Shown piece after piece: positions 19,711-49,994 of a stretch of 64,000 bases of DNA. The position numbers and the translations under genes are program-made. The number at the start of each line of letters is the position of its first letter. Position 1 is the first letter of the stretch. This DNA comes from an uncultured Planctomycetota bacterium (GTDB lineage: Bacteria > Planctomycetota > Planctomycetia > Gemmatales > Gemmataceae): the NCBI GenBank assembly GCA_963849325.1, contig CAWKHF010000002.1, forward strand, positions 704,001 through 768,000, given 5' to 3'. The notes under the pieces are model-generated. The model did no database searches. It was not told the DNA's origin and saw only the letters and a list, made by a program, of their open reading frames with translations.

Positions 19711-21000
19711 TTAGTAACGATACATGAGGCTGACACTCAACCAATGTGCCTGCGCTCCCACCTGGCTATTATTAAAGTCTCCCCCCACGAGGGCGCTCTG
19801 TCCAACCGCCTGTTCATTGCCGAACGAGTATTGGTAGGCGAGGTTGACGGCCCAATTATTCCACTGCTTGCCATAACCTGCCGAAACGGCTTGATTCAAG
19901 ATCGCTGGAATGTAGGGAGTTAGCGTCTGGTTGGGGACCGGCTGAGGATGATAAATATAACCGAGACGTACAACCTGAGTCTGACCAAAATAGTATTCGT
20001 AGCCCAGACGAACCGAGACGCTGCTATACCAGTTCAGGGGAAAGTTGTCCCGAATCGTGGGTCCGGCCAGCATGGGGATAAGGGGGTTGCTGCTGTCGCT
20101 CAGCCGCAGGCCGACATTATTGAAGGCGTCCGACCAGTCAAACCACATGACTTGGAGCATGGCGCGGTGCTGCCCCTCCTCGCCGAAGGCGTGGACGAAC
20201 CCTCCCGACAACGAACGAGGCAAGGTGATATCGACATCGGCGTCGAAACGACTGGAAATCGTTACGGGCAGGACCTTCTCGACATCGACCGAGGCGTTGC
20301 CATGCAAATTATAGCGCGTCTGGGCGATGTAAGACAGGCCGAGCATCGTCCGTTCGCCAAGAAGATATTGCAGACCCACCGACCAGGCGGGGGTGACACC
20401 GGTGGCATGGAGGTCGAGCAGGGTCGAGACCCCGCGCAAGGTGCCGCTCTGGACAACAAAAGGACCATCGAGCTGGGCGTAGGTCACTCCCAGCCCACAG
20501 GTCCCACCCACCGAAAGCCGATCCGTGACTCGATATGCGAACCCCGGGAGGATGTCGGTAACGGCGGCAAACGACTTGTACTGCTGCGCTCCCAGAAGCG
20601 GGCTATTGATTTGCCAGTCGGTGCCGAAGCCCGCCGGGGCGAACACCCCTATGCCGTAGGCGAAATCGCCGCCCTCACTCCGTTGAATGAGCGAGAAAAA
20701 CGGCAGGGCCAACGGCGTCTCGCCGCTGTGGACGTGACTATTCTGCGGACTGCTGTAATCCAGATCGGTGAACAGTCCGTCCACGCCCACTTCGTAGAGA
20801 CCCTTGCCCTCGACATTGGCCATGCCGGCGGGGTTGTCGTAGAGGATGACGCCGTTGTCGAAGCTGGCCACGTTGTTGCCGCCGCGACCGATGGGGACCG
20901 CGCCGATGCCATCGCGCTCGACGCCATCGGCCCACGCCGGCCTGACGCTGAGAGCGAGCAGGCATCCGAGGCCCAAGCATAGACCGATCCTGGATTTCAT
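19711..21000 (-). CDS. OmpP1/FadL family outer-membrane channel for hydrophobic compounds
   Basis: Signal peptide MKSRIG...AWA; IGRGG..A; YDNPAGM (NPA hatch motif); YGIGVFAPAGFGTDW; C-terminal aromatic YRY. Confidence 0.87.
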   Translation of the reverse strand: MKSRIGLCLGLGCLLALSVRPAWADGVERDGIGAVPIGRGGNNVASFDNGVILYDNPAGMANVEGKGLYEVGVDGLFTDLDYSSPQNSHVHSGETPLALPFFSLIQRSEGGDFAYGIGVFAPAGFGTDWQINSPLLGAQQYKSFAAVTDILPGFAYRVTDRLSVGGTCGLGVTYAQLDGPFVVQSGTLRGVSTLLDLHATGVTPAWSVGLQYLLGERTMLGLSYIAQTRYNLHGNASVDVEKVLPVTISSRFDADVDITLPRSLSGGFVHAFGEEGQHRAMLQVMWFDWSDAFNNVGLRLSDSSNPLIPMLAGPTIRDNFPLNWYSSVSVRLGYEYYFGQTQVVRLGYIYHPQPVPNQTLTPYIPAILNQAVSAGYGKQWNNWAVNLAYQYSFGNEQAVGQSALVGGDFNNSQVGAQAHWLSVSLMYRY

Positions 21001-21256
21001 GGCTGGATCCCTGACGTCCTTGTCCCGTGGAGCCATTGCACTGCGAACCATCCTCCGCCAACGAGTTCGTCCTTTTCCGATTGTACCGTCTCTACCTCAC
21101 GTATCGAATGGAGGACCGCGCCGCTGGATTTCTCTCATCTCCTAATCGTCATTCCTCCTACATCCGGCCCAGCAGAAACGGAGAAGTCGATGGAATCGGT
21201 AAGGTCATCCCATGCGTAGGTTGCCCAAGATACCCAGTTGATTTCGGACGAGGAGG

Positions 21257-22322: not shown

Positions 22323-23357
22323 CATTTTTCCGGCAAGTTGCTTGGACGGTTCCACTGCCTGTTGGGCCAGTCCTTTCCGCAGGGCCAGGAAGCGCTCTTC
22401 GCAACGGCAGAACGCCGCGACGACGGCCGGGTCGAAATGACCGCCGGACTCTCGGATGATAATGGAGCGGGCCACCTCATGGCTGAACGCCTCTTTGTAG
22501 ACCCGTTTGGACGTGAGAGCGTCGTAGACATCGGCCAGGGCGGCAATCCGTCCACAGAGGGGGATCTCCAGACCGGACTTGCCGCGCGGATAGCCCGTCC
22601 CATCGAAGTGTTCGTGATGCGTCAGGGCGATGTCGCGCGCCATGCGCAGGAACTTGCGCGCGGATGTTGGCGCAACGCGGCGTGGAGGGTACGGGCCCCG
22701 ATCAGCGTATGCTTTTTCATGATGGCGAATTCGCTGTCACTGAGTTGGCCCGGCTTGAGCAAGATGTTATCGGGGATGCCAACCTTGCCGATGTCGTGCA
22801 GGGGGCTGACCTGGTAGATCAGGCGGATGAACTCGGGAGTAATCTGGCCGGCGAAGTCCGGTTGCCCGGACAGATCCTGGGCGAGGATGCGGCAGTAGTT
22901 GCGCATGCGCTCCAGATGTGCCCCGGTCTCCCAATCGCGCGACTCGGCCAATTTGGCCAGGGCGAACAGGGCCAGATCGCGCGTCTCCAGCGACAGGATG
23001 CGCTCGCCGGCGCCGATGCGCACACGCAGCTCGGCGGGGTTGAACGGCTTGATGATGAAGTCGTCGGCTCCGGCCGACAATCCTTCGAACGATGTCCGTA
23101 TCCTGATCGCGGGCCGTCAAGAGGATGAAATAGATGTAGGAGGGAAAGTCGCCGGCGCGAATCTCGCGGCACAGTTGCAAACCGTCCATCTCCGGCATGC
23201 TCCAGTCGGAGATGACCATCTGGTACGTCCCGCCGCGCAAGATCTCCAGGGCCTCGCGTCCGTCACAAGCGAGCCGGACTTTATACCCGCTCTCCTTGAG
23301 CAGGTAGCTCAGCAGTCCGCGAATAATGTCATCATCATCGACAACCAGGATGCGCAT
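22311..23357 (-). CDS. Response regulator with REC and HD-GYP domains (RpfG-like cyclic-dinucleotide phosphodiesterase); frameshifts at about 23085 and 22655
   Basis: MRILVVDDD, DWSMPEMDG, GADDFIIKPF, ETGAHLER, LHDIGKVGIPD, HHEHFDGTGYP, ADVYDAL. Confidence 0.88.
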
Positions 23358-23390: not shown

Positions 23391-26091
23391 TTAGCCTACC
23401 GGGGCCGGCGTTACGGCCCGCGGATCGAACTGGAGAATCCGCTGGCATTCCTCGCGCACGGCCGAGAGGCCGTGCCGGGCTCCGACCAGATCGGAAGCCT
23501 TGGCGAGCATCTCCAATCGGGCCGCCGCGGCCTGGAGACCCTCGGCCGAAAGGCTGGCCGCCGCCCCTTTGAGGCTGTGCGCCAGCAGGGCGAGCTTGCT
23601 GCTTTCTCCCAGAGCGAGGCTCTGCTCAATCTGCCGCAGGTCTTCCGGCAGCCGTTTCTGGAACTTGGCCACCGTCCGTTCCAGCACGTTGGGGTTGCCC
23701 AGGCAGCGCCGGAGCAGATCCTTCAGGTTTAACGGTACGCTGCTCAACGTCCTCGTTTCGCCGCCGGAATGGGCCGGCTGCCCGGTCGCCGTGGTCGTCT
23801 CGGTGGCGGACAGATGGACCTCCACCGCCTGGATCACCTGCTCCGGATAGAACGGCTTACTCAAGTAACCCGTCATCCCGGCGCGCAGACAGGCTTCCCG
23901 ATCGCCGGTCAGGGCGTTGGCCGTCAGGGCGATGATGGGCAGCGGGCTAGTCCTCCGCCCAGCCAGAAGCCCGGCCTGTTCCTTCTCCCGGATTAACTGG
24001 GTCGCTTGCAATCCGTCCATCTCCGGCATATGGCAATCCATGAGCACCAGGTCGTAGGCTTGTTCCAGCAGCGCCTGCACGGCGAGCTTGCCGTTGCCGA
24101 CGATTTCGCAATCGAAGTGGGCATCGCGGAGGATCTCCGCCACCAGATCCTGGTTGACCTCGTTGTCCTCGGCCAGGAGAATGCGTGCCCGCTTTCGACC
24201 GGCTTCGGCCAACGGCCGGCGTATGCCAGTTGATGGACTCTCCGCCAGCCGGCTGACGCCGACGGTTCCCCCTCCGCCCTCCACTCGATCGCCGTTGGCG
24301 GTCAGACCCTTGAGAACAACCTCCAGCAGATGCGATTGCTGGACCGGCTTGGTGAGGCAATCGGCGAAGCCGGCCGCCTCCAGGCGGCCCTCATCGAGCG
24401 GTTCGCCCAGATAGCTCAGCAATAACAGCGTCGTTCGAGCCAGGGCGGCATCGGCCTTGATGGCCCGAGCCAGCTGTTCGCCATCCATCCCCGGCATCTG
24501 GAAGTCGAGAATGGCCAGCCGGAACGGCTCGCCGGCACGGACGGCCTCCCGCAAGGCCGACAGGGCACTGGACCCGTCGGCCACGGTTTGCACCTTGAAG
24601 CCCCAAGCCCGCAGCTGCTGCTCCACGATCTCGCGGCAGGTCGCATTGTCGTCCACGACCAGGATGCGCAGTGCCGCGCACGTTCGAGGCGAGGATACGA
24701 GCTTCCTTGGTCCCGCGCGGCGGCTTTTCCAGGACCATGGTGCACCAGAAGGTCGAACCTCGTCCGGGTACGCTCTCCACCCCGATTTGCCCACCCATCA
24801 GGGTGCAGAGGTGCTTGGAGATGGCCAGGCCCAGGCCGGTGCCCCCGTAACGCCGTGTCGTCGAGGAATCCACCTGCGAGAAGGAATGGAAGAGCCGATC
24901 CATCCGCTCGGGAGCGATGCCGATGCCGGTATCGGTGACGCGGAACCGCACTGTCAGATTTCGCTCGCTCTGCTGCTCCAGCGTCGCGCGGATGACGACC
25001 TCGCCCCGCTCCGTGAATTTGACGGCGTTGCTGGCCAGGTTCGCCAGGACCTGCTGGAGCCGGTTGGGATCGCCGCGCAGCCGCGGCGGGATGTCCATCT
25101 GGACCGAACAGGCCAGTTCCAACCCTTTGCGGCGCGCCTGGGGAGTGACCAGCTCCGCCACGCTACCGACGACGTGGCGAAAGTCGAAGTCGATGGTTTC
25201 CAGTTCCAGTTTGCCCGCTTCGATCTTGGAGAAGTCGAGGATGTCGTTGATCAGACGCAACAGAACCTCGGCGGAGCTGTGGGCGGTGCGGGCGTAGCGC
25301 CGCTGCTGGCCATCCAGGTTGGTGTTCAAGAGCAGATGGGTCATTCCCAGCACGCCGTTGAGCGGCGTGCGCAGCTCGTGGGACATGGTGGCCAGGAACT
25401 GGCTCTTGGCCTGGTTGGCCGACTCGGCGCTCTCGCGGGCCGACTCCAGCAGCGACGACTTGCGGGCCAGTTCCGCCGCCTGCGCTTCCAGGGCGTTCTT
25501 GGCCTGCAACAACTCGACGTTATAGCGCTGCAATTCCTCCTCGGCCCGCGTCAGCTCCAGTACCTTCCGCTCCAGCATTTCCAGCGAGTGCTGAACCGAC
25601 TTGCCCAGCTCGACCTTTTCGGCCATCGATTGGGCCAACTGCAAGACCTCGATGGCGTCGAACGGCTTTTTCAGGATCAAGAGGTTGCCGGTCTTGCCCA
25701 GCTGGATGGCGATCTCTTTCCAGTCGTAATCGGAGAAGGCGGTGCAGACGACGCAGGGCAATCCCGGCAGGTGCTTCCACAGTCGCTTGATGGTCTGGAT
25801 GCCGTCGATGCCGGGCGGCATGCGGACGTCCACGAAGGCCATGTAATAGGGTTGGCCCTGGCGAGCGGCCTCCACGGCCAGGGCGATGCCCTCCTCGCCC
25901 TGGTACGCCGAGTCGATCTGGACTTGCAGCTGGACATCCGGCTTGAGGGCCGTCCCGTTGTGCGAGCCGAACAGGTCCGCCTCCAGGTCGTCCAGCTCGG
26001 CCTTGCGGCCGGCGGAATCGAACACCTTGCGGAAGTCCGCATGGATGTCCTTGTTATCGTCAATGATCAGGATTCGGTTGACACAGGTCAT
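23391..26091 (-). CDS. Cytoplasmic hybrid histidine kinase REC-HisKA-HATPase-REC-REC-HPt; frameshift at about 24700
   Basis: [60 protein letters not shown]. Confidence 0.9.
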
Positions 26092-26117: not shown

Positions 26118-26240
26118 AAACCACGGATGACACGGATAAAAGAGACAAAGAAATAATCAATTATGTCAGTGTGACTGGCCAACCCCTTCTTTCACGTCTT
26201 TTATCCGTGTCATCCGTATTATCCGTGTCATCCGTGGTTT
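26118..26240. mobile_element. MITE-like element, family C
   Basis: AAACCACGGATGACACGGATAA...TTATCCGTGTCATCCGTGGTTT; the upstream kinase reads into it. Confidence 0.7.
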
Positions 26241-29200
26241 GTATTTCCTTCTCGGCCGTTTCTTCCAGGAGCGGGAACTCAATGGCGAAGGTGGCGCCGG
26301 TGCCGGGTCCGTCGCTGTGTACCTGGATGGTCCCGCCCATCTCGGTCATGGCGTTGGCGGCCGAGTGCAGGCCGAAGCCATTGCCGTAGCGCTTGGTGGT
26401 AAAGCCGTAGTTGAAAATCTTCTGCAGGTTCTCGCGCTCGATACCTCGGCCGCTGTCGCCGACGGAGATGCGGGCGCGCGACCGGCCGACGCCCCGAATC
26501 CGAACCGTCAAAGCCCGGTGGCCCACTCTCTGCGACTTGATCGACTCGACCGCGTTCTTGACCAGGTTATCGAGTACCTGCACCAGCTTTAACCGCTCCA
26601 GCTTGGCCTCCGGCAGCGACTCGAAATCGCGGACGACCTGGATGTCATGCTTGGCGAACGAATGCGTGTGCATGACCAGAACGTCGCCGACCAGCCCCTG
26701 AAGATCGACCGCTTCGCGGATGGAAACTTTGCGGGCATAGTTCTGCTGCGCGCTGATGATGTTGCGGATGTCTTGCAGTTTCTCGCGCAAGAAGTCCATC
26801 TCGGTGAGCATCTGGCGCTGCTCGGTCAAGAGGGTGTCGGAGAGCTTGGTCAAGTACTCCGGTAACTTCTTGCCGCGCGGATCGGTCTGGAGGAAGGACG
26901 CCAGGTTGTCGCCCTGGGCCTGGAGCAGGGCGGCGGCCTTGGCCGGGCCTCGGAAGTTCCATCCCTGCAGCTGACTGTTGACGGTGGTCACCGAGATGTT
27001 GACGCTGTTGAGGACGTTGCCGACGTTGTGCAAAACGCCGGTGGCGATCTCGGTCATGCCGGCGCGGTGGGCGATGTCCACCATGCGGGTCTGCGTCGTC
27101 TGCAGGTCGCGGACGGCGCTTTCCAGTTCGGCATTGCGCTGATCCAGCTCCTGGTGCAGGCGACGCAGCTTGAGCAGCGAGCGGACCCGCGCCCGCAGCT
27201 CTTCGGCGTCGAACGGCTTGACCAGGTAATCGTCGGCGCCGCCGTCGAGTCCCTCGATCTTCATGGCGCGCTCGGCCTTGGCCGTGAGCATGACGAAGGG
27301 GATGTGAGCGGTCGCCGGCTCGGCCCTCATGCGCCGGCAGAAGGCGTAGCCGTCCACGCGCGGCATCATCACGTCGGAGATGATGAGCGCCGGCAGTTCA
27401 CGCAGGGCCACGTCGATGCCCTCGGCCCCATCGCAGGCGACCACGGTGCGGTACTGCGACGCGAGGATGCTGCACACCATGGTCCGCAGCTCCGGCGTGT
27501 CGTCCACAACCAGAATCATGGGGGCATCCACGGGGGCCGTCGAAGGAGCATTCACCAGGGCCGGTGGGGGTTCGCAGGCGATCAGGTCGGCAAAGCGCGT
27601 GCGGAAGATATTGAACTCCATCTTGGAGTCGCCCCCCGAGAAGGGCCGCGCCATCGCCGGCGCGACGCCGGTCCCCCTCGGCTCGGCCAGGACCGGGACC
27701 GAGTTCATCGGAATGCGGAACCAGAAATGCGACCCTCCGCCCGCCTCGCTCTCGACCTGAATTCGTCCGCCGTGCAACTCGATCAGTTCTTTCGCCAGGG
27801 CCAACCCCAGGCCGGTGCCGGGGAACTCGCGCGAGGAGGAGCCGTCGATCTGCACGAAGCGCTCGAAGATGCGAGCCTGATCGGCCTTGGCGATGCCGAT
27901 GCCGGTGTCGCGCACCGAGACCCGCACCTCGTCGTCTTCCCGAGCCGTCTCCAGGGTGATCGTTCCCCCCTCGGGGGTAAATTTGATGGCGTTGGACAGC
28001 AGGTTGCTGATGACGGTATCTAGCTTTTCCTCATCCGCCCGGATTTCCGTCGTCGAGGCGTCGGCGAGGACGCGCAGCTGCACCTTCCGCCGCGTCGCCA
28101 GGGGCTGGGCCGCGAGCGTCAGCTTGTGGATCAACTGATTCAGGTCCATCGCCGCCGGAAGCAGCTTCAGACGCCCGGCCTCCAGCTTGGAGAACTCCAG
28201 GAGGCGATTGATTAGCTCCAGCAGGCGCCGGCCGTTGATGTTCACCACGTTGAGCATGTACGAGAACGTCAGCCGGCAGCTGCGGTCCATACTGCTCCAG
28301 GGTCTGCTCCACCGGCGACAGGATCATCGTCAGCGGCGTGCGCAGCTCGTGGCTGACATTGGAGAAAAACTCGGTTTTCAGGCGATCGTGCTCGCGCAGC
28401 TGGCGCAAGGAGTGCTGAAGCTTGCGCCGGCTGCGGGACAGTTGGCGAGTTCGGCGGCGTACTTTCTTCTCCAGGTTGGTGTTCAGATCGCGGATGGTCT
28501 GGGCATTTTGATCGAGCTTCTCCACCATGGCGTTGAACTGACGGGCGAGGATGTCAATCTCGTCATTGCCCGTGGGCTGGACGCGCTCCGTCAGGCAACC
28601 CTGCTCGACGCGCTGCATCCCTTGCAGCAACCGGCCGACGCGCGCGGCCACCGACCGGGCCAGGACGGTGGCGAAGACGATGCCCACGCTGACGGCCGCG
28701 ATCGTGATGAAGGTGGTGTGATTGCGCAGGCTGGCGACGGCCTCGGCCTGGTTTTCCGGGTACTCAACGAGGTCCGCCGCCCGCTGCCGGGCCATGGTGC
28801 CGATCATCAGGGCGGTGGTCAGGATGATGAGGGCGAAGCAAAGGTTCAGCCGCCCGCGCAGACGACTCTGCGGCAGGGCCGGGTAATCGATGGCGATGCC
28901 GCTGTCCAGAAGGTGATGGATGACCGGCTGAAGGCACAGTTCGATGACGAAGAAGGTGGTCATCAGGGCCATGGTGATGCCCATGAAGACCGCCAGGGTG
29001 ATGTTGGTCATGACGGTCCACGAGGCGCCGTCCATCAGTCGGAGGGCGATCAGCACCGGCACCAGGGTGACACTGGGCACCAGCCAGGCCTCGTTTTTGT
29101 GATGGCGCGCGGGAAATACCACCGCCTCGCGGCCGGCCCGGGCGGCCAGGACCACCTCCACCGGCTCGTCGCCCTGGAGGTGGGCCAGGACGCGCCGGAG

Positions 29201-29482
29201 GTGCCGCGTCTCCCACATCGAGGCCAGCACCGACGACAGTACGGCCACGACCACCACGATCCCCGCCAGGACGTAGAAATGGTGGCGGACCTGGTCGGGC
29301 ATGCGCAGCGTCAGGTTGACGTAGTAGACCACCAGCAAGCCGCCGACCGAACCGGACAGGCGGGTGGCAATCATCATCAGAAGGATGTAGTGCGGACCCA
29401 ACCACCGCACCAGGCGGAGCAAAGGACCGTGCGCCATGCGGCGGGAGTCGGCGCTCAGAGATGCGGCAACGCGGTCGCCCAT
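26161..29482 (-). CDS. Membrane hybrid sensor kinase: about 6 TM-HAMP-HisKA-HATPase-REC-second kinase module; frameshift at about 28275
   Basis: Six hydrophobic segments; [68 protein letters not shown]. Confidence 0.9.
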
Positions 29483-29528
29483 GTAACTCGCCAATGAATC
29501 CGTGCTCAGGCCAAGGGATGACGCTATT

Positions 29529-29599: not shown

Positions 29600-30682
29600 T
29601 TATTTGTAGCCCCGGCTGCCCAGGTGCAGGCAAATCAGCCGTTGCAGTCCGAGGACGAATGGACCCAGGTCGAGGGATTTCACCCGCGGCCTCTTGGCGA
29701 GAATCGCTCGACGATGTTCTTGCCACTGGCGCAGGAAATGGGCCTCGTGTTGTCCCGCAACGATGACCGACCGGATCTCTTCCCGATCACCTTGCCGGAG
29801 TTGTCCCAGGCTAAGGCTCCCTTCCATCAGGGCGCGCGCATACACCCCGCTGGTGAAATCGCCCTCGCCGAGTTCGCGTTCCCACGTGGTCGTCAGGTTG
29901 CCGATCCGCCCCATGCACTGCCCATGCCAGGCCGCTTCCCGCAGGTGTCCGACCTCGGCGGGATCCAAATCGGGCGAACACGTGAGGTCCAGGGTGGCCG
30001 AGACCATCATGTGCATGTTGTGGGGCAAGTAAAGGTCGTGCTCCGTCACGTTGAGCAGCGCGGGATTGCTATTAAGCAGGTGCGAATAGCGCATCGTGTT
30101 GAACAGCTGCAAGTAATCGTAACGGAGCAACGAGGCATAGGCGCCGTAGCACGGAAAACGCCGCGCACGGGCGTGAATCTCGTGCCATAGCTCGAAAGTG
30201 AACTGCGCGTAGTCCTGTTCCTCTTGGGAGAATCGGCGCAGGTCGGGGGTGGGGTCTCCCAGAGGGAGGCGGAGATAGCATTCCAGCAGCTCTTCATCGC
30301 CTTTCTGGTCGGCCACGTCATCCACCAGCACGTCCAGCATGATGCCGAGGACTTTCGTATCGCACACCTCGTCGCGCCATTCCGGAGCGACGCTGGGGAG
30401 CATGGTGACTTCGACGCCCTGGCGGGCCCAACGCCATAAATAATGATTTCGCCGGCCGACCCGAGCGTAGCCATCGGCCCAGTGCTCTAGGGCCGGGCTG
30501 AGGCGCTTGGTCAGGACCGGCGCGATCTCGCGCTGGATGTCTTCGGGAGACGGGAAAAAGGTCTCCGGCACCGAGACTCGGCCTTCCCCGACCCACTCGG
30601 GAGGACCGAACCTGTCATCGACCGGAGCAGCCGGTCGCACGGCCGGATTGTGCTGCTCCTCGCGAGCCAGGGCAATGGACAT
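29600..30682 (-). CDS. Class I terpene synthase / isoprenoid-synthase-fold protein (putative)
   Basis: DDVAD (DDxxD) at residues 121-125; NSE-like N262-LTT-T266-WER-E270 followed by GEGD, about 140 aa downstream; 360 aa, helical character. Confidence 0.68.
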   Translation of the reverse strand: MSIALAREEQHNPAVRPAAPVDDRFGPPEWVGEGRVSVPETFFPSPEDIQREIAPVLTKRLSPALEHWADGYARVGRRNHYLWRWARQGVEVTMLPSVAPEWRDEVCDTKVLGIMLDVLVDDVADQKGDEELLECYLRLPLGDPTPDLRRFSQEEQDYAQFTFELWHEIHARARRFPCYGAYASLLRYDYLQLFNTMRYSHLLNSNPALLNVTEHDLYLPHNMHMMVSATLDLTCSPDLDPAEVGHLREAAWHGQCMGRIGNLTTTWERELGEGDFTSGVYARALMEGSLSLGQLRQGDREEIRSVIVAGQHEAHFLRQWQEHRRAILAKRPRVKSLDLGPFVLGLQRLICLHLGSRGYK

Positions 30683-30775: not shown

Positions 30776-31309
30776 TCACACGGATATAGCGGTGAAATGT
30801 ACCTGCGTATCCGATGCGAATTGCGGGCCAAGGGCGAGGAGACTCGAGCTGGCGAACCCGCCCATCGGGTTTCCAATGCTGCCGGTGGACCCGGAAATCG
30901 CTCCGTTGCTGCCCACGAGGAGAGCACCACTGGGAGGGACGATCCCCTGGATGAACGAGAAATCCAAGGTGGTCACCGTCGCCAGCGGCTGCTGCCCGAG
31001 CGCTCCGGGGAAGAAGGTGAAGGTCGCCCGCCCCATCGTCCCGACCATCATTCCATCCAGGAGCAACGGCGTCAGCGCTTCCTGATACTGGCCGATGACC
31101 GGACCCAGGGGTTGTGTTCCTAAATAGATGTTCCCACCCAGGGACGACGGCTGACCTCGTTGGTCAAATGTTATCCCTGTGCCGACGATGTTGATGTCGA
31201 AGGGGACCGACAGGGGTTGCCCCGAAGGGAGATCGCGCGCCTCCAGGGCTTCGAGTCCCAGACGAACACTCCGCCGATTGTGGTCTTGACGCCGGGGACT
31301 GAGAGTCAT
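30776..31309 (-). CDS. Small exported beta-rich protein (177 aa) with planctomycete export motif; possible dirigent/AOC-like barrel
   Basis: GGAG RBS and ATG at 31309; RRSVRLGLEALEARDLPS; alternating beta-strand pattern; AISGSTG motif. Confidence 0.6.
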   Translation of the reverse strand: MTLSPRRQDHNRRSVRLGLEALEARDLPSGQPLSVPFDINIVGTGITFDQRGQPSSLGGNIYLGTQPLGPVIGQYQEALTPLLLDGMMVGTMGRATFTFFPGALGQQPLATVTTLDFSFIQGIVPPSGALLVGSNGAISGSTGSIGNPMGGFASSSLLALGPQFASDTQVHFTAISV

Positions 31310-31643
31310 GATACACTCCAACAAGTTGGCGAGTTGCGTCGCATGAGCGCCCCGAGGGCAGTCACGGGAGAGAAAGCTCGCCGGTTTGGAAGCCGCTTCT
31401 TGGCTGGTTCGCAAGAAGTCTAGTTTGCAAGATCCGAAAAGGCAAATAGCGCCGTCTCCCGCGCGATGGCTGTCAAGGTTCTCTTCGTCGAAGCACGCGA
31501 GAAGAAGGTCGGGAAGGAATTCTTGTAGGGAATTTGCTTTATTGACCGGGCAGACCTACATTTCCTTGACTCCTATCCCTTTAGAGATGGCTCAGCTCCC
31601 TTATGGAGAGCGATCCGAACAACCCCATAGCGAGAACCTGCTC

Positions 31644-32315
31644 ATGATCCGTCGCTTTTCGTCCGTGGAAGAGGTGGTCCTGGCCTTAACGGCTGGCCGT
31701 GCCGCCATCGTGCTCGATTCGGAAGAACGCGAGAACGAAGGGGATTTCCTCGCCGCCGCGGAAAAAGTCACTCCCGAGCTGATTCATTTCATGCTTCGCC
31801 GGGGGTGCGGCCAGCTGTGTGTTCCCGTCGCCCGCGAGATCGCTTCGCGGCTGGAACTGGAACCGATCGGCACCAACATCAACTCGGCCGGCACGGCGTT
31901 CGCGGTGCCCCTGGACCATCGCGGCTGCCGGACGGGCATCAGCCCCGCCGAGCGCGTGCTTACCATTCAAGAGATGCTCAATCCCTTCAGCCGTGCGGCC
32001 GATTTCCAGCGACCCGGACACGTGTTCCCCCTGATCGCACGGGAAGGCGGCGTTCTGCGCCGGCCGGGGCACACCGAAGCGGCGGTGGATCTGACCCGGC
32101 TTGCCGGGCTGGCGCCGGCCGGCGTCTTGTGTGAGATCTGCAGCCGAGATGGATGTCACATGGCCGACCGGGCCGAACTGTGGGAGATCGCCGAAGAGTT
32201 TGATCTGCCCGTCTTCGCCATCGACGATCTCATCCGCTTCCGTTTACTTCACACCGACGAACCCATAACATTGGTTCGTCCGTCCGAACAACTGCGTTCG
32301 GTCGCCGTCGTTTAG
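31644..32315 (+). CDS. ribB: 3,4-dihydroxy-2-butanone-4-phosphate synthase family, stand-alone and divergent
   Basis: DSEERENEGD, RPGHVFPL, GGVLRRPGHTEAAVDL, GVLCEI. Confidence 0.85.
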   Translation: MIRRFSSVEEVVLALTAGRAAIVLDSEERENEGDFLAAAEKVTPELIHFMLRRGCGQLCVPVAREIASRLELEPIGTNINSAGTAFAVPLDHRGCRTGISPAERVLTIQEMLNPFSRAADFQRPGHVFPLIAREGGVLRRPGHTEAAVDLTRLAGLAPAGVLCEICSRDGCHMADRAELWEIAEEFDLPVFAIDDLIRFRLLHTDEPITLVRPSEQLRSVAVV

Positions 32316-32345: not shown

Positions 32346-33873
32346 ATGTCAAGTAATTGCTCCCTGATCGATTCGCGGAGGCATCGATCCATCGGACTGC
32401 GGCTGCCGCTGTCCTACGCGCTCATGATGGCCGCGAGTATCGGTCTTTTCCTCCTCATACGCAGCCACGGCAACACCCTCGCCGGCGTGGCGAATGCGGA
32501 GGCCGCGATCCCGGCGGCGCCGGCATCGAGCTCCCCGGATACGGCCCTGCCCCACGTGTTGCTGGCGCTGACGGCGGTCCTCCTCGTCGGCCGGTTGGTC
32601 GGCCGACTGTTTCAATGGGTGGGACAACCGGCGATCGTCGGCGAGGTCGTCGTCGGCATCCTGCTCGGCCCTTCCCTGCTCGGCCGTCTTGTCCCGGGCG
32701 CCTCGACGTTTTTGCTGCCCGCCTCAGCGGCGCCGGCCCTAAGTGCGATTGCGCAGCTGGGAGTGATCCTGTACATGTTCCTGGTGGGTCTGGAGTTTAA
32801 CCCGGCGGTCCTCCGCAATCGGACCCATACCATCGTGGCCATCTCCCACGCCAGCATTCTCGTTCCTTTCCTGCTCGGCGCCCTCCTGGCCCTCGGCCTC
32901 TACCCTCGGCTCTCGCCTGGCACCGTTCCCTTTACCGATTTCGCCCTCTTCCTGGGCGTGGCCATGTCCATCACGGCGTTCCCCGTGCTGGCCCGCATCT
33001 TGACGGATCGGGGGATCAGCCGGAGTCGGCTTGGGATCATGGCCTTGACCTGCGCGGCCAGCGATGACGTGACGGCCTGGTGCCTGCTGGCCTTTGTCAT
33101 CGGCGTGGCCCGGGCCGACCTCCGAAACGCCCTGGTCGCTACCGGCCTGATGGCCGGCTATGTCGGCTTCATCTTCCTGATCGTCCGTCCTCTCCTGGCC
33201 CGCCTGACCGATCGCGTGTCCCGGAAGGGGTTCACTTCGGATTCGCTGGCGGCCATCCTCGTCTGTCTGCTCCTGTCGGCGCTGACCACGGAATGGATTG
33301 GCGTTCATGCCCTCTTTGGCGCCTTTCTCTTTGGCGCCGTGATCCCTTCCGAGAGCGCGATGGCGCGGCAGCTCGTTCACAAGCTGGAGGGTCTGGTGAC
33401 GACCCTGCTGCTGCCGGCCTTTTTCGCCTTGACCGGCATGCGGACGCAAATCGGGCTGATCTCCGGGCCGGAGAACCTGCTGCTGTGCGGCGTCCTCATC
33501 TTCCTCGCCACCGCCGGCAAATTCGGGGGCACCGTGGCGGCCTCGCGCCTCACCGGGCTGGCTTGGCCGCCGTCCCTGGCCCTGGGAGCCCCTCATGAAT
33601 ACGAGAGGACTGATGGAGCTGATTGTGCTGAACATCGGCCTCGATATGAAGGTGATCCCACCCACGCTTTTTGCGATGATGGTGCTGATGGCTGTGGCGA
33701 CCACCTTGATGACCGCGCCGTTGCTCCATCTGCTCACGCCGAGATTAGGGGACGACCTCACCCCGACATCGGACTCCGCCAAAGTCCTCCATCCTCCATC
33801 GGCCCTCTTGCCCGCCCATCGTGCGGACATCGCCATGCTGCCGCAACCTGCGGCCATGTCCCAGCTTTCTTGA
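32346..33873 (+). CDS. Cation:proton antiporter (CPA2/Kef-type); frameshift at about 33590
   Basis: [42 protein letters not shown], then [15 protein letters not shown]. Confidence 0.9.
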
Positions 33874-34031
33874 CCGAATCACAAGTCTTGCAAGGACTTC
33901 GGATGAAGAGATTCCGAATGAGGAGCCGATAATCCTTTTCAGGCGACAGCGGCGCTCGCGTGTGGAGTCCGGGGACTCGTAGGGTGGGCGCCGCGGCGAG
34001 AGGCGGCGGCAGGGTAGGAGGCGACCCAAAT

Positions 34032-43492: not shown

Positions 43493-44599
43493 TTAGAGGG
43501 TGCCGCGGCGGGCCTGTTCGCGCTCGATGGCCTCGAACAGCGCCTTGAAGTTGCCCTTGCCGAAACTCTTCGAGCCGTGCCGCTCGATGATCTCGAAGAA
43601 CACCGTCGGCCGATCCTCGACCGGCTTGGTGAAGATTTGCAGCATGTAGCCCTCGTCGTCGCGGTCCACGAGGATGCCCAGTTCGGCCAACTCCGCCATG
43701 TCCTCGTCGATGGCGCCGACGCGCTCCGGCAGCATGTCGTAGTAGGCGCGCGGCACGCGCAGGAAGGAGACGTCGTTGTGCCGCAGTGCCCGCACCGTCT
43801 CGACGATGTTGTCGGTCGCCAGGGCGATGTGCTGCACGCCGGGGCCGTGGTAGAAGTTCAGGTACTCCTCGATCTGCGAACGGCGACGACTTTGGGCCGG
43901 CTCGTTGATCGGGAACTTGATGCGGCCGCCGCCGCCCTGCACCACCTTCGACATCAGCGCCGAGTATTCCGTGCTGATGTCCTTGTCGTCGAAGCTGACC
44001 AGCTGCGAGAAGCCGAGCACGCGCTCGTAGAAGCGCACCCACTCGTCCATCTTGCCTTCCTCGACGTTGCCGACGATGTGGTCGATCGCCTTGAGGCCGA
44101 CCGGATGGAACGTGCGCGGGCTGTAGCGGTCGGCGTCGAGCGGCTTGTAGCCGGGTGCGAAGACGCCGCGGTAGCGGTCGCGGTTGACGAAGCTGTGCGT
44201 CGTGTCGCCGTAGGCGCGGATGACGGCATATTCGTAAACGCCGTTCTCGTCTTCGAGCAGCGTCGGCGGCGTGACGCCGACGGCGCCGCGCTCCGTGGCG
44301 ATGCGGTAGGCGGCGGCCACGTCCTCGACTTCCAGGGCGATGTCCTGCACGCCGTCGCCGTGCTCGATGATGCGATAACTGTCCGGGTGCTGCGGCCCGA
44401 GCGGCGAGGCGAGGACGAAGGTGATGTCGCCCTGGCGCAGGACGTAGCCGGCTTCGTGACGGGTCTTGGTCTCCAGGCCGGCGTAGGCGATCACATCGAA
44501 GCCGAAGGCGTTGCGGTAGAAGTAGGCCGACTGCCGGGCGTTGCCGACGAAGAAGCGAACGTGATCGATACCGCGGAGGGGGATGTCGGAATCGCTCAT
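43493..44599 (-). CDS. hppD: 4-hydroxyphenylpyruvate dioxygenase
   Basis: IDHIVGNV, SALMSKVV, GPGVQHIAL, LQIFTKP, FFEIIER, FGKGNFKALFEAIEREQ. Confidence 0.96.
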   Translation of the reverse strand: MSDSDIPLRGIDHVRFFVGNARQSAYFYRNAFGFDVIAYAGLETKTRHEAGYVLRQGDITFVLASPLGPQHPDSYRIIEHGDGVQDIALEVEDVAAAYRIATERGAVGVTPPTLLEDENGVYEYAVIRAYGDTTHSFVNRDRYRGVFAPGYKPLDADRYSPRTFHPVGLKAIDHIVGNVEEGKMDEWVRFYERVLGFSQLVSFDDKDISTEYSALMSKVVQGGGGRIKFPINEPAQSRRRSQIEEYLNFYHGPGVQHIALATDNIVETVRALRHNDVSFLRVPRAYYDMLPERVGAIDEDMAELAELGILVDRDDEGYMLQIFTKPVEDRPTVFFEIIERHGSKSFGKGNFKALFEAIEREQARRGTL

Positions 44600-44614
44600 G
44601 GCATAATCCTTTTC

Positions 44615-44679
44615 GTTTAGCCGCGACGCGCAGCGGAGCGCGGGATGCTCCCGCGCTCCGCTGCGCGTCGCGGCTAAAC
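44615..44679. repeat. REP-like palindrome, family A, containing the phhA stop codon
   Basis: The TAG of GTTTAG (44674-44676, minus strand) ends phhA. Confidence 0.9.
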
Positions 44680-45580
44680 CTGCGCGAGTACGGGAATCCC
44701 GAAGCGACGGACCAGCGCCTCCAGCTCGCGGCGCAGGAACGGCAGCGACGGGGCGATGAACAGCTGGTCCTGCATCCGCGACGGATCGTAGTCCGTCTCG
44801 ATGACCACGTCGGTCACGAACGGCCGCCGCGTCACCTCCGCCGACAGCAGCGAATAAGGGATCTCGCCGGTCGAAGAAAGGATGCCGGCCCCGAACACCT
44901 TGGTTTCGTCGCCCTCCTCGATCAGACCGAACTCGATGCTGAACCAGCTGAACCGCTTCAGGGCCAGCACCTGATCGCCGTGGGTCGTGGTCGCCACGGC
45001 CTTGCCGATGAGGGTGAGCAGCTCGGCGTAATCGCGGTTCATCAGCGGCGGGACGTGGCCGAGGCAGTCGTGGATCATGTCCGGCTCGGGCGTGAACTCC
45101 GGGTGCGAGCCGTGGCGGAGGAACTGCGTCACCGGAAAGCCGCGGTCGCCGATGTACTGGTAAAAGGTCCGGTACGGCAGAGCGCCCTCGGCCGGGACGA
45201 GGTGCATGTTCGTCTCGCGCCGCAGCCGGTCGCTCAGGTGCCGCAGCTGCGGGATCTCGCTCGCGGGTGATGGCGAGTTCGCGCTTGGCGTCGAGGTAAA
45301 TCCGGCTCGCGTGCTTCTGGTGCAGCTCGTCCAGCTTCGGGCTGACCTCGCGCCAGATCCGCGTTTCTTCCGGGGTGTAGTGGATGATCGGCGGGCCGAG
45401 ACCGCCCAGGCGGTGACGCCGGCACAGGGCGAACAGTTCCTTCCGCCGTGCGATGTACTCCGCATCGCCCAGGCCGGGGTGTCCCGGCTCCAGTTCCAGT
45501 TCGGTCACGTCCGGCGGCGTCACCATCATGCCGGCATCGATGGGCGCCCCATATTCGACAAGCGTAGCGGCTTTTTTCAT
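44674..45580 (-). CDS. phhA: Phenylalanine 4-hydroxylase; frameshift at about 45260
   Basis: HPG..D..Y..RR, FPVTQFLR, TPEPDMIHDCLGHVPPL, WFSIEFGLI, GAGILSS.GE. Confidence 0.9.
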
Positions 45581-45779
45581 GACGATTGCCTCTGACGTGT
45601 GCTCCGGGACGGGCCTGTCTGATCGGCGAAGGGTCTCCTTAGATATTTTACCCCTGCTTCGGGGCCGGAACAACGGCGGAGGGGTGGCCGGTATGGGCGG
45701 ACCCTTGCGGGCGCCGCGCTCGCCTGCTATCTTGCGGGTCGCCCGGAAAAGCCGTTACACCCTTGGGAACATTCCAGCC

Positions 45780-49942: not shown

Positions 49943-49994
49943 TTGGGTGCGCCCGCATCGTCCGCTCGCGCTCGTCTGTCCGAAGGATGGGACC

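Follow-up and report, generated by a model that had tools for sequence, protein, structure and literature searches.

Gene content of the TSL locus

The window considered here, a stretch of 64,000 nucleotides from an uncultured planctomycete of the family Gemmataceae, contains on one strand a cluster of genes coding for a terpene-synthase-like protein (hereinafter TSL), histidine kinases and further phosphorelay components, the MEP-pathway enzyme IspH and a FadL-type channel, with the gene for a RibB paralog transcribed divergently (Table 1). The TSL gene is a minus-strand ORF with an ATG start in the ORF list, coding for a protein of 360 amino acids, whose residues 1-31 are predicted to be disordered and in which a scan for hydrophobic segments found none.

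Table 1. Genes and motifs of the TSL locus, with positions in the window
Feature	Positions	Strand	Basis and remarks
Terpene-synthase-like protein (TSL)	29600..30682	-	Predicted soluble; class I alpha fold over residues ~40-360 (AF2, Foldseek, VIA-align)
DDVAD (D121-D125), putative Asp-rich metal-binding motif	30308..30322	-	At the end (C-terminal) of helix 100-125; matched to the DDxxD of 7bzb in the family profile
NLTTTWERE (N262, T266, E270), putative NSE/DTE-type triad with Leu at the second Asp position	29873..29899	-	Conservation; aligned to ND..T...E of 7bzb
SRGYK C-terminal tail, candidate stand-in for the RY pair	29603..29617	-	R357 and K360 invariant
Hybrid histidine kinase (HAMP, HisKA, HATPase, REC, second kinase-like part)	26161..29494	-	Pfam; TM scan
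REC-HisKA-HATPase phosphorelay kinase	24391..26091	-	Pfam; in 38/52 loci
REC-REC-Hpt phosphotransfer protein	23391..24794	-	Pfam; in 31/52 loci
Response-regulator receiver protein	22767..23357	-	Pfam; in 25/52 loci
IspH/LytB (HMBPP reductase), second copy in the genome	21257..22210	-	PF02401 6e-89; TIGR00216 299 bits against a cut-off of 188
FadL/TodX-family outer-membrane channel for hydrophobic compounds	19711..21051	-	PF03349 7e-36; in 26/52 loci
Diverged RibB (DHBP synthase) paralog, divergently transcribed	31386..32315	+	PF00926 4e-69; TIGR00506 196 bits against a cut-off of 177

Searches with the TSL protein against Pfam (E<=10), NCBIfam and the sequences of the PDB recovered no match, and neither did a profile of 33 homologs against the PDB sequences. 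A profile of the wider family recovered from the PDB an unrelated kinase as its best match (E 0.07), followed by the plant terpene synthase AtTPS18 (7bzb; E 0.18). Of 36 wider relatives, 17 weakly match PF19086 at E<=1 (best 2.6e-7) and four match PF03936; two fused relatives score 18.4 and 16.4 bits, below the Pfam cut-off of 23.7, and the TSL of the window likewise falls short of the Pfam gathering threshold. The homologs are all named 'hypothetical protein' at the source, and fused versions are labeled 'DXP synthase' or 'transketolase C-terminal domain protein' in the databases. The suggestion of the first-pass annotation that this might be an unannotated subfamily is borne out by these searches and names. 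No canonical terpene synthase was found with PF19086 in this genome, the assembly of which is 84.7% complete.

The hybrid kinase encoded downstream of TSL has 6-7 predicted TM segments between residues 37 and 279. Its gene is split over two frames by one frameshift between 28197 and 28265, as judged from an intact ortholog of 1113 residues (locus L006). The ORF for the REC-HisKA-HATPase kinase overlaps the next ORF by ~400 nt, and a single ORF of 898 residues takes their place in L006, which suggests a second frameshift. Hence, the circuit may be broken in the window, or the assembly may carry indel errors. The 105-nt gap between the TSL and kinase genes shows no terminator-like site on the minus strand, and Pfam recognized no output domain in the response regulators of the window. 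The domain of the RibB paralog spans about 31668-32240; the second RibB and the other IspH copy of the genome both lie on contig C12. No prenyltransferase was found within the window.

Predicted fold and putative active-site motifs of TSL

The AF2 model of TSL (pLDDT 87.3, pTM 0.85) recovered 25 matches at E<=1e-3 in Foldseek, and all the matches listed are class I terpene synthases, with 9kgb as the best (E 6e-5) and TM values of 0.43-0.59. Likewise, the 50 best entries in VIA-align are all terpene synthases (Z 19.3-21.1, rmsd 2.9-4.3 A over 249-298 residues). Both comparisons of the predicted structure support a class I terpene synthase fold for TSL, in agreement with the first-pass annotation, which had proposed an atypical class I terpene synthase and which any other than the alpha-helical terpenoid synthase fold would have contradicted. 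TSL does not qualify as a trans-isoprenyl diphosphate synthase: it has no match to PF00348, its second motif is N..T...E and not DDxxD, and polyprenyl synthases (3oyr, 5h9d; E ~1e-3) rank lower in Foldseek.

The putative active-site motifs reported in that annotation are present in the translation of the minus strand, with DVLVDDVAD read from 30308-30334, RIGNLTTTWERE from 29873-29908, and HLGSRGYK followed by the stop codon from 29600-29626. D121 and N262 are 141 residues apart, and a spacing of ~140 residues between the Asp-rich and NSE motifs is usual in bacterial type I terpene synthases. In the model each motif is found where a long helix reaches its C-terminal end (DDVAD on helix 100-125, the N/T/E triad on helix 241-272), as is the case across the terpene synthase family. 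The replacement of the second Asp of the NSE motif by Leu is seen in the translation as L263; this residue is present in at least 90% of the set of 33 homologs, and the position is variable in the wider set of 36 proteins. In terpene synthases, the Asp that usually occupies it is not known to act as a metal ligand. The statement that there is no RY pair holds for Y359, which varies among Y, F, K, N, R, S and Q, but overlooks that R357 and K360 are invariant; this tail may be the equivalent of the RY pair.

Across the 33 homologs, with 52-78% identity, D121, D122, A124, D125, N262, T265, T266, W267, R269, E270, R357 and K360 are invariant. In the wider set, with 29-52% identity, D121, D122, D125, R269 and E270 remain invariant, and N262 and T266 are conserved in at least 90% of the proteins. 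Judged from these alignments, the conservation of the motifs is beyond what chance would produce. The weak profile match to AtTPS18 noted above aligns the DDxxD of TSL with that of the plant enzyme and GN..T...E with its ND..T...E. The 33 homologs also share a set of further invariant polar residues, namely D189, Q192, N195, E214, H215, H221, N222, H224, R248 and Q255.

Phyletic distribution and domain fusions

TSL was detected in five of 301 sampled Planctomycetota genomes, a distribution typifying a rare, accessory family. The TSL domain ends at most 10 residues from the C-terminus in 345 of 346 family proteins. Among the 120 longer homologs listed, 107 carry N-terminal DXS or transketolase domains, and in many of these DXS parts neither the GDG...N thiamine-diphosphate motif nor the IAEQH motif is left. 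Other architectures include RibB::TSL (P0121) and PilZ::TSL (P0265), the latter of which fits an enzyme under c-di-GMP control, to go by its domains. No fusion of TSL to a kinase was seen among the 346 proteins; kinase domains do occur in P0353, but this seems to be a gene model in which separate genes were merged. One genome (G008) codes for four distant TSL paralogs (24-30% identity) without any of the neighbors queried. A tree of the family from a fast search, midpoint-rooted and with no branch support other than SH-aLRT, was used for grouping by architecture and not for the order of events.

Gene neighborhoods in two distant lineages

We assessed the planctomycete neighborhoods over 52 TSL loci, many of which end early at contig ends. 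In 45 of them the sensor part of a 6-TM HAMP hybrid kinase directly adjoins TSL on its downstream side, i.e., the putative synthase gene lies beside a polytopic sensor kinase, as is to be expected of a signal pair. No other part of the neighborhood is as constant as the TSL-kinase pair. When the kinase sensor was used as a query, two of the 301 sampled Planctomycetota genomes gave a match; both carry TSL, and in one of them (G285) the matching kinase is adjacent to it.

IspH is encoded in 29 of the 52 loci. The TSL-bearing genomes have two IspH copies (G000, G128), one (G285) or none (G008, G176), and five genomes without TSL have one copy each; the counts of zero or one rule out that an extra IspH always accompanies TSL. 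The RibB paralog lies upstream of TSL in 21 of the 52 loci, and elsewhere DXS is fused or adjacent to TSL. To our knowledge, a bypass of DXS by conversion of Ru5P to DXP has so far been described for E. coli ribB mutants obtained in the laboratory and for no other case. The RibB paralog does not use the known change for such an activity, as all eight aligned paralogs retain G108 (E. coli numbering), and the D113 position alone differs (D to E); a role for it as a DXP synthase is hypothetical. A gene of the geranylgeranyl-reductase family is also present in the TSL cluster of three loci (L036, L040, L047).

A metagenome scan with an alignment of six sequences as the query recovered TSL relatives with ~30% identity in a low-GC, Patescibacteria-like branch. 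Here a kinase match is present in 30 of 57 loci, again giving the arrangement of a putative synthase gene beside a sensor kinase, and it is always downstream and on the same strand. Among low-GC loci that include the 3' end of TSL and at least 400 nt beyond it, the kinase match starts within 900 nt in 22 of 30. Six of ten low-GC partner kinases scanned possess a HisKA_7TM sensor. Homology between this sensor and that of the planctomycete kinases was considered and rejected, as hhalign detected none (probability 0.2%); both types are polytopic, with 6-7 TM segments in the TM scan. Two unrelated polytopic sensors of this kind suit a membrane-resident ligand. In four low-GC loci (L069, L075, L081, L100) the gene directly upstream of TSL codes for a short-chain prenyl-diphosphate synthase, which in L075 is fused to a type-1 IPP isomerase, and in two others (L085, L086) a geranylgeranyl reductase is encoded upstream. 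The neighborhood of TSL is conserved in these two distant lineages, and it is the part of the present findings that is new with respect to the first-pass annotation, which had not seen it.

Functional inferences and alternatives

The combination of TSL with a sensor kinase and genes for isoprenoid supply suggests a previously undescribed terpenoid-based signaling circuit. We infer metal binding and catalysis by TSL, and further a substrate chain length, a product and the binding of that product by the kinase, along the following lines. A Mg2+ cluster, coordinated by D121 and D125 from one helix and by N262, T266 and E270 from the helix facing it, would allow TSL to bind an isoprenoid substrate by its diphosphate. 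Further contacts to the diphosphate would come from R269, R357 and K360, with the free C-terminal tail closing off the site. Ionization of the substrate would yield a lipophilic terpenoid, which might enter the membrane and serve there as a ligand for the polytopic histidine kinase whose gene follows that of TSL. TSL and the kinase would then constitute a signal-synthase/receptor pair feeding a multi-step phosphorelay, with precursors supplied by the extra IspH together with DXS or the RibB paralog and with the FadL-type channel allowing the compound to pass the outer membrane. We regard it as probable that TSL acts catalytically on an isoprenoid diphosphate; the whole reading, in which the lipophilic product of a catalytic terpene synthase is the ligand of the partner kinase, is put forward more tentatively, as a plausible proposal that may well need revision. 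A still larger proposal, speculative and doubtful when taken as a whole, is that the TSL-kinase pair is an ancient isoprenoid system for cell-to-cell or self-sensing common to Planctomycetota and Patescibacteria-like bacteria, with a terpenoid autoinducer, passage through FadL and readout by the kinase, and that the RibB paralog replacing DXS is a natural Ru5P-to-DXP enzyme. As to the product, a hemiterpene (isoprene-type) synthase was favored at first, given the IspH and the lack of a prenyltransferase in the window; we have dropped it as a firm claim, since distant relatives lie behind genes for short-chain prenyl-diphosphate synthases and geranylgeranyl reductases.

Several observations weigh against TSL and the kinase being a synthase and its receptor. 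On the side of the protein, these are the Leu at the second Asp of the NSE motif together with the non-canonical RY pair, the failure of the window TSL to match any Pfam or NCBIfam model, and the many invariant polar residues, in contrast to typical cyclases, the contour of which is hydrophobic and variable. DXS, as the commonest and often degenerate fusion partner, reads equally well as a regulatory architecture. On the side of the neighborhood, kinases beside biosynthetic genes can be plain regulators, two kinase genes of the window appear frameshifted, and a response regulator with a recognizable output domain is wanting. Moreover, the extra IspH is not general among TSL genomes, FadL occurs in just half of the loci (with contig ends truncating many of them), and the paralogs of G008 stand without the queried neighbors.

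These points bear differently on the alternatives. TSL could be an ordinary biosynthetic terpene synthase with a non-signal product, such as a membrane-modifying terpenoid or a volatile, the kinase sensing something else, for instance membrane state or stress, and merely regulating the cluster. It would draw on the same evidence from fold and motifs, account for the genes for precursor supply and tailoring in the cluster, and agree with the rare, accessory occurrence of the family; furthermore, polytopic kinases that sense membrane state exist, DesK being one. We nevertheless hold it to be somewhat unlikely: the kinase pairing is kept at ~30% identity with a different sensor while the biosynthetic neighbors change, the planctomycete sensor domain was found in two of the 301 sampled genomes, both of them TSL-carrying, and a phosphorelay with several steps and four genes would be an elaborate means of turning on a single enzyme. 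The family would also be explained if TSL were mainly a sensor of isoprenoid diphosphates that binds, together with Mg2+, IPP, DMAPP or a prenyl diphosphate of greater length and reports the pool size by protein contact, in the stand-alone form to the histidine kinase and as a C-terminal domain to the fused DXS or pseudo-DXS for homeostasis of the MEP pathway. The 107 DXS(-like)::TSL fusions are arranged like a catalytic domain with a regulatory one behind it, their DXS parts without cofactor motifs could serve as regulatory subunits, and the genes under control could be the neighboring ones for IspH, DXS, IDI and prenyl-diphosphate synthase. The very high conservation (52-78% identity across orders) points the same way, as does the feedback inhibition of DXS by prenyl phosphates, which is described in PMC8227265. 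A complete set of trinuclear-metal motifs in a terpene synthase fold would, we infer, be expected to ionize allylic diphosphates in any case. A cytoplasmic co-sensor needs no polytopic sensor in its kinase, let alone two unrelated ones, and such a role leaves FadL and the geranylgeranyl-reductase-family gene unexplained. As, in addition, no fusion of TSL to a kinase was seen among the 346 family proteins and the IspH of this cluster is an extra copy and not the sole one, we consider a primary role in sensing unlikely.

The first-pass annotation had also offered a prenyl-diphosphate hydrolase or a prenyltransferase acting on a polar acceptor. The wealth of invariant polar residues, His among them (E214, H215, H221, N222, H224, R248, Q255), would be at home in such an enzyme, as would an extra Asp of the planctomycete clade, D117, one helical turn before D121; the link to RibB could point to a small phosphorylated acceptor, and PMC7414894 reports terpene cyclases that can act as aromatic prenyltransferases. 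However, conservation of D117 does not extend to the wider family of 36 proteins, no acceptor-supplying gene is conserved in both lineages and nothing singles out hydrolysis, making either activity very unlikely. Returning to TSL as the synthase of a ligand for its partner kinase, a search of the openly accessible literature found nothing on the TSL family, nor on fusions of DXS with terpene synthases or pairings of a terpene synthase with a kinase, and no bacterial quorum-sensing or two-component system with a signal made by a terpene synthase. We likewise know of no such system, and the TSL family provides a directly testable candidate for one. It also adds a branch of terpene synthases that current Pfam and NCBIfam models miss; because its members carry 'hypothetical protein' or DXP synthase labels and have no models, genome mining for terpenoids overlooks them. 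Counts of DXS in Planctomycetota are inflated by the degenerate DXS::TSL fusions.

Comparison with known systems

In joining isoprenoid enzymes in one chain, the TSL fusions resemble the prenyltransferase-cyclase bifunctional synthases, described in PMC11474042 as fused enzymes of terpene pathways, and IspDF, which, according to PMC10663253, is a precedent for the fusion of MEP steps that do not follow one another. They differ from both, as described there, in that the partner is DXS, the first enzyme of the MEP pathway, six steps upstream and often degenerate, with RibB and PilZ as further partners.

With the bacterial class I terpene synthases (PF19086, Terpene_syn_C_2), TSL shares, in its predicted structure, the single alpha-domain fold and, in sequence, a DDxxD motif and an N..(S/T)...E triad ~140 residues apart. 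Examples of these are the pimarane-type diterpene synthase Sat1646 (7e4n), tolypothrichol synthase (9kgb) and selinadiene synthase (4okm), with Z 20.0-20.8 and rmsd 2.9-3.7 A over 251-284 residues. TSL departs from them in the Leu at the second Asp of the NSE motif, in ending with R-G-x-K at the very C-terminus instead of having an internal RY pair, in its many invariant polar residues and very strong conservation, and in its fixed partnership with a polytopic histidine kinase and MEP-pathway genes. The alpha-domains of plant enzymes, namely bornyl diphosphate synthase (1n20), isoprene synthase (3n0g) and limonene synthase (2ong), have the top VIA-align scores (Z 20.6-21.1) and the same metal-binding logic as that proposed for TSL, but these enzymes are multi-domain proteins with 10-12% identity to it; as all the VIA-align entries are tied within Z 19-21, their ranking gives neither a chain length nor a product for TSL.

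CqsA/CqsS and LuxM/LuxN are gene pairs of an autoinducer synthase and its receptor, the latter being a polytopic hybrid kinase. These synthases have no kinship in sequence or fold to TSL, which has a predicted terpene synthase fold and the putative signal of which would be an isoprenoid. Nevertheless, the layout is alike: the gene for a cytoplasmic synthase lies beside that for a multi-TM hybrid kinase suited to a hydrophobic signal, and is followed by an Hpt/REC phosphorelay.

The TSL family and its relationship to class I terpene synthases

The terpene-synthase-like protein (TSL) of the window has no match in sequence searches of Pfam, NCBIfam or the PDB. It belongs to a family of 514 proteins at E<=1e-3 in a 90%-clustered collection, where every source name is 'hypothetical protein' and the bins are Planctomycetes, Pirellulales or Gemmataceae, and of 653 representatives in a 50%-clustered library (283 at E<=1e-30). 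From 33 aligned sequences, AlphaFold2 gave a confident model (mean pLDDT 87.3, pTM 0.85), with residues 1-31 disordered and an all-helical structure from residue 46 onward. A Foldseek search of the PDB with this model gave 25 matches at E<=1e-3 (TM-scores 0.43-0.59); those listed are class I terpene synthases throughout, among them tolypothrichol synthase (9kgb, 6e-5) and aristolochene, abietadiene, T-muurolol and pentalenene synthases. With VIA-align applied to the Foldseek list, the best 50 entries are terpene synthases without exception (Z 19.3-21.1, rmsd 2.9-4.3 A, 249-298 aligned residues), and these rows are tied, so that their ranking says nothing on the chain length of the TSL substrate. 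The fold proposed in the first-pass annotation is thus supported by the model.

Direct translation bears out the DDVAD motif and the N262/T266/E270 triad within RIGNLTTTWERE that had been noticed earlier, and the spacing put at about 140 residues measures 141. In the model, a long helix carries each motif at its C-terminal end (helices 100-125 and 241-272), which is where class I terpene synthases have their two metal motifs. D121, D122, A124, D125, N262, T265, T266, W267, R269, E270, R357 and K360 are invariant in 33 homologues of 52-78% identity; D121, D122, D125, R269 and E270 remain so in 36 wider relatives of 29-52% identity, at least 90% of which keep N262 and T266. Hence, these motifs are no chance strings. 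The TSL departs from the consensus in lacking the second Asp in its NSE motif and a canonical RY pair; the reported lack of the latter holds in that Y359 varies, but R357 and K360 of the same tail never do. PF19086 was matched at E<=1 by 17 of the 36 wider relatives (best 2.6e-7) and PF03936 by four. A weak alignment of the family profile with AtTPS18 (E 0.18) sets DDxxD on DDxxD and the GN..T...E of the TSL on ND..T...E, and the ESM Atlas cluster holding the TSL is automatically named 'Terpene synthase family protein', with PF19086 in 10% of its members. By predicted fold and motifs, then, the TSL is a relative of the class I terpene synthases.

The gene cluster in the window

Downstream of the TSL, on the same strand, lie genes for a hybrid kinase, a REC-kinase, a REC-REC-Hpt protein, a REC protein, IspH and FadL, in that order, and RibB is encoded divergently upstream. 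No terminator-like site was found on the minus strand of the 105-nt gap between the TSL and the kinase, nor any prenyltransferase or other terpenoid gene elsewhere in the 64-kb window. Further copies of IspH and RibB are encoded on contig C12 of the same genome, so those beside the TSL are extra copies.

Features of the TSL and its cluster, with the number of 52 planctomycete TSL loci matched by each queried neighbor (tblastn; many loci end early at contig boundaries)
Feature	Coordinates	Strand	Basis	Loci matched (of 52)
TSL	29600-30682	-	360-aa ORF	
DDVAD motif, residues 121-125	30308-30322	-	direct translation	
RIGNLTTTWERE with N262, T266, E270	29873-29908	-	direct translation	
C-terminus HLGSRGYK	end of 29600-30682 ORF	-	direct translation	
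Hybrid histidine kinase (6-7 predicted TM, HAMP, HisKA, HATPase, REC)	29494-26161	-	domain search, TM scan	45 (sensor)
REC-HisKA-HATPase kinase	26091-24391	-	domain search	38
REC-REC-Hpt protein	24794-23391	-	domain search	31
REC protein	23357-22767	-	domain search	25
IspH/LytB	22210-21257	-	domain search	29
FadL/TodX outer-membrane channel	21051-19711	-	domain search	26
RibB (DHBP synthase)	31386-32315	+	domain search	21

The hybrid kinase aligns in two frames to an intact 1113-aa orthologue at locus L006, with the break between 28197 and 28265, and where the next two ORFs overlap by ~400 nt (24391-24794) the same locus has a single 898-aa ORF. As the assembly (completeness 84.7%) likewise splits DXS (C2:61.7 kb) and its other RibB gene across frames, these frameshifts are likely to be assembly indel errors.

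Other genes of the window merit mention in their own right. A 212-aa ORF between the TSL and RibB (30776-31414, minus strand) lacks a Pfam match and is conserved in just 4 of the 52 loci; its copy at locus L002 is 30% identical to the first 310 residues of P0123, a fused relative. A Na+/H+ exchanger gene (32346-33932, plus strand) follows RibB, and its relatives occur within 8 kb of the TSL in 11 of the 52 loci. A 726-aa ORF (43493-45673, minus strand) joins part of a biopterin-dependent aromatic amino acid hydroxylase to a pair of glyoxalase/HPPD-type domains, and is either a fusion of an uncommon kind or the product of an assembly error that merged two genes. On the plus strand, a PSCyt2/PSD1 (DUF1549/DUF1553) protein (49947-51665) is encoded near a DUF1501 protein (53845-55332), a pairing common in planctomycete genomes.

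Linkage and rarity in Planctomycetota

The 52 loci were obtained by taking one genome per species, and their titles are all of Planctomycetota lineages. A Rubripirellula locus (L017) shows the gapless order TSL-IspH-FadL. DXS is fused to the TSL or immediately upstream of it in about 10 loci, and a DXS-like sequence of ~25% identity in four more. A locus from Phycisphaerae (L040) encodes, in this order, DXS::TSL, a geranylgeranyl-reductase-family flavoprotein, IspH, a HAMP kinase, a REC-kinase and FadL; locus L036 has such a flavoprotein followed by pseudo-DXS::TSL, the kinase, the REC-kinase and IspH.

The family is rare in Planctomycetota: a profile search recovered it in 5 of 301 evenly drawn genomes, the window's own counted. 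The 275-aa kinase sensor was matched in two of the 301, both TSL carriers, and in one of the sampled genomes (G285) the sensor kinase adjoins the TSL. IspH copies number 2, 2, 1, 0 and 0 in the five TSL genomes versus one each in five others. Two genomes of genus g19 (G008 and G176, 9.3-9.5 Mb) each encode four distant paralogues, 24-30% identical to the window TSL, two of them in tandem (e.g., G008:C1:6748570-6750668); among the neighbors queried, no kinase, IspH, FadL, DXS or RibB was found beside them. PF02401 (IspH) was not found in either genome, which may use another isoprenoid pathway.

Domain fusions and the RibB paralogue

Among 120 longer TSL homologues listed, 107 contain DXS-type Pfam domains. 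In 20 long representatives scanned, DXS or transketolase domains precede the TSL in 11, RibB in one (P0121) and PilZ in one (P0265); one further protein has a weak terpene synthase match alone and six have nothing. Some fusions, such as P0124, carry full DXS. Eight others (P0128, P0129, P0130, P0132, P0134, P0137, P0140 and P0170), as well as the fusions at loci L036 and L047, have lost the GDG...N thiamine-diphosphate and IAEQH motifs, and their DXS-like domain is therefore very probably an inactive pseudo-enzyme; databases label these proteins DXP synthase or transketolase C-terminal domain protein. In 345 of 346 family proteins, the TSL domain stops within 10 residues of the chain's end, as would suit a C-terminal tail that is free and functional. 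In a tree from a quick search (midpoint root only), the proteins cluster according to architecture. The clade of DXS fusions is the sister (SH-aLRT 97) of a pair of clades, one of stand-alone TSLs, including the window protein and with the RibB-fused P0121 at its base, and one of pseudo-DXS fusions. A 1920-aa 'eukaryotic' gene model (P0353, eukprot) joins GcpE/IspG, TSL, HD, histidine kinase and REC domains; it probably reflects a bacterial cluster that was merged on a contaminating contig, and adds IspG to the MEP genes seen beside the TSL.

RibB is absent from every one of the 52 loci with a DXS or DXS-like partner, the two being mutually exclusive beside the TSL. In one study, the E. coli ribB mutants G108S and D113G make DXP and rescue a dxs deletion (PMC3424233); another has G108S in use as an engineered enzyme converting ribulose-5-phosphate to DXP (PMC8227265). 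The paralogue beside the TSL retains G108 and has the motif TGISPxER, in which Glu stands where E. coli has D113, in all 20 readable instances from the 21 RibB-bearing loci (the exception being L032), versus Asp in 29 and Glu in one of the canonical RibBs of 30 other Planctomycetota genomes; the C12 copy also has Asp. It further shows F-x-x-P-x-D-H versus the canonical F-T-V-S-x-D/E-A, and a Cys two residues ahead of TG, and still scores above the RibB equivalog-domain cut-off (196 bits versus 177). We hypothesize that this paralogue may supply DXP as a natural DXS bypass. Alternatively, it could be an ordinary extra source of flavin precursor.

A distant branch in low-GC genomes

Low-GC DNA is the source of members of ~30-35% identity. 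Six of these served as queries in a metagenome scan, which gave 57 loci of 30-40% GC, and the named best matches of a MetRS on one such contig are in Patescibacteria-type bins (Jorgensenbacteria, WWE3, Paceibacterota). A kinase match was present in 30 of the 57 loci, always downstream of the TSL on the same strand; of the 30 loci that contain the 3' end of the TSL gene and extend 400 nt or more past it, 22 have a match starting within 900 nt. Ten of the 12 longest loci have an ORF for a ~540-aa kinase that starts directly after the TSL, and six of these ten kinases match the HisKA_7TM sensor model. Directly upstream of the TSL, four loci (L069, L075, L081 and L100) encode a short-chain prenyl-diphosphate synthase, whose best NCBIfam matches are IdsA or GGPP synthase, below cut-offs; that of L075 forms a fusion with a type-1 IPP isomerase (TIGR02150, 130 bits versus a cut-off of 106), and in L100 a UbiA prenyltransferase follows. 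Two others (L085 and L086) encode a geranylgeranyl reductase in that position (TIGR02032, 164 bits versus 159). No homology of the low-GC 7-TM sensor to the planctomycete 6-TM/HAMP sensor was detectable (hhalign probability 0.2%). Two very distant lineages therefore pair the TSL with a polytopic kinase, of a different kind in each, and both have isoprenoid genes around it.

Functional interpretation

The analysis establishes the modeled fold, the conservation of the acidic motif and the N/T/E triad, an Arg that never varies ahead of E270, an Arg and a Lys that are likewise constant in the free C-terminal tail, and a conserved association with genes of isoprenoid supply and with a polytopic kinase. 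Catalysis on an isoprenoid diphosphate appears fairly probable: the TSL would bind the substrate via Mg2+ and then ionize it. The adjacency of IspH first suggested a C5 substrate, but the prenyl-diphosphate synthases and geranylgeranyl reductases next to the distant members may point to C15-C20. The lipophilic product would pass into the membrane, where the partner kinase would read it; precursor supply would be raised by IspH together with either DXS or the RibB paralogue, and FadL would offer the compound passage across the outer membrane.

That the TSL might be a signal synthase and the kinase its putative receptor is the reading we favor, albeit tentatively, given that unrelated kinds of polytopic sensor recur beside it, that FadL, a tailoring reductase and a PilZ fusion accompany it, and that its IspH and RibB are extra copies. 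Weighing against this are the many invariant polar residues of the TSL, the fact that fusions are predominantly to DXS or pseudo-DXS, an IspH copy number that varies irregularly across TSL genomes, and the four distant G008 paralogues without any queried neighbor. It is rather unlikely, though worth considering, that the TSL is a synthase and that its kinase only acts in regulation or belongs to a membrane-homeostasis loop. We regard as unlikely, too, that it is a prenyl-diphosphate sensor reporting to the kinase or to DXS, and as quite improbable that it is a hydrolase or a prenyltransferase.

Comparison with known systems

A search of the full-text literature, with subscription journals outside its coverage, found no paper on the TSL family, DXS-terpene synthase fusions or terpene synthase-kinase pairs. 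The TSL resembles class I terpene synthases in predicted fold and motifs, but the sequence models of those families fail on it. Pairs of an autoinducer synthase and its receptor are exemplified by CqsA/CqsS, and the TSL and its kinase would resemble such pairs functionally, without any homology to them.
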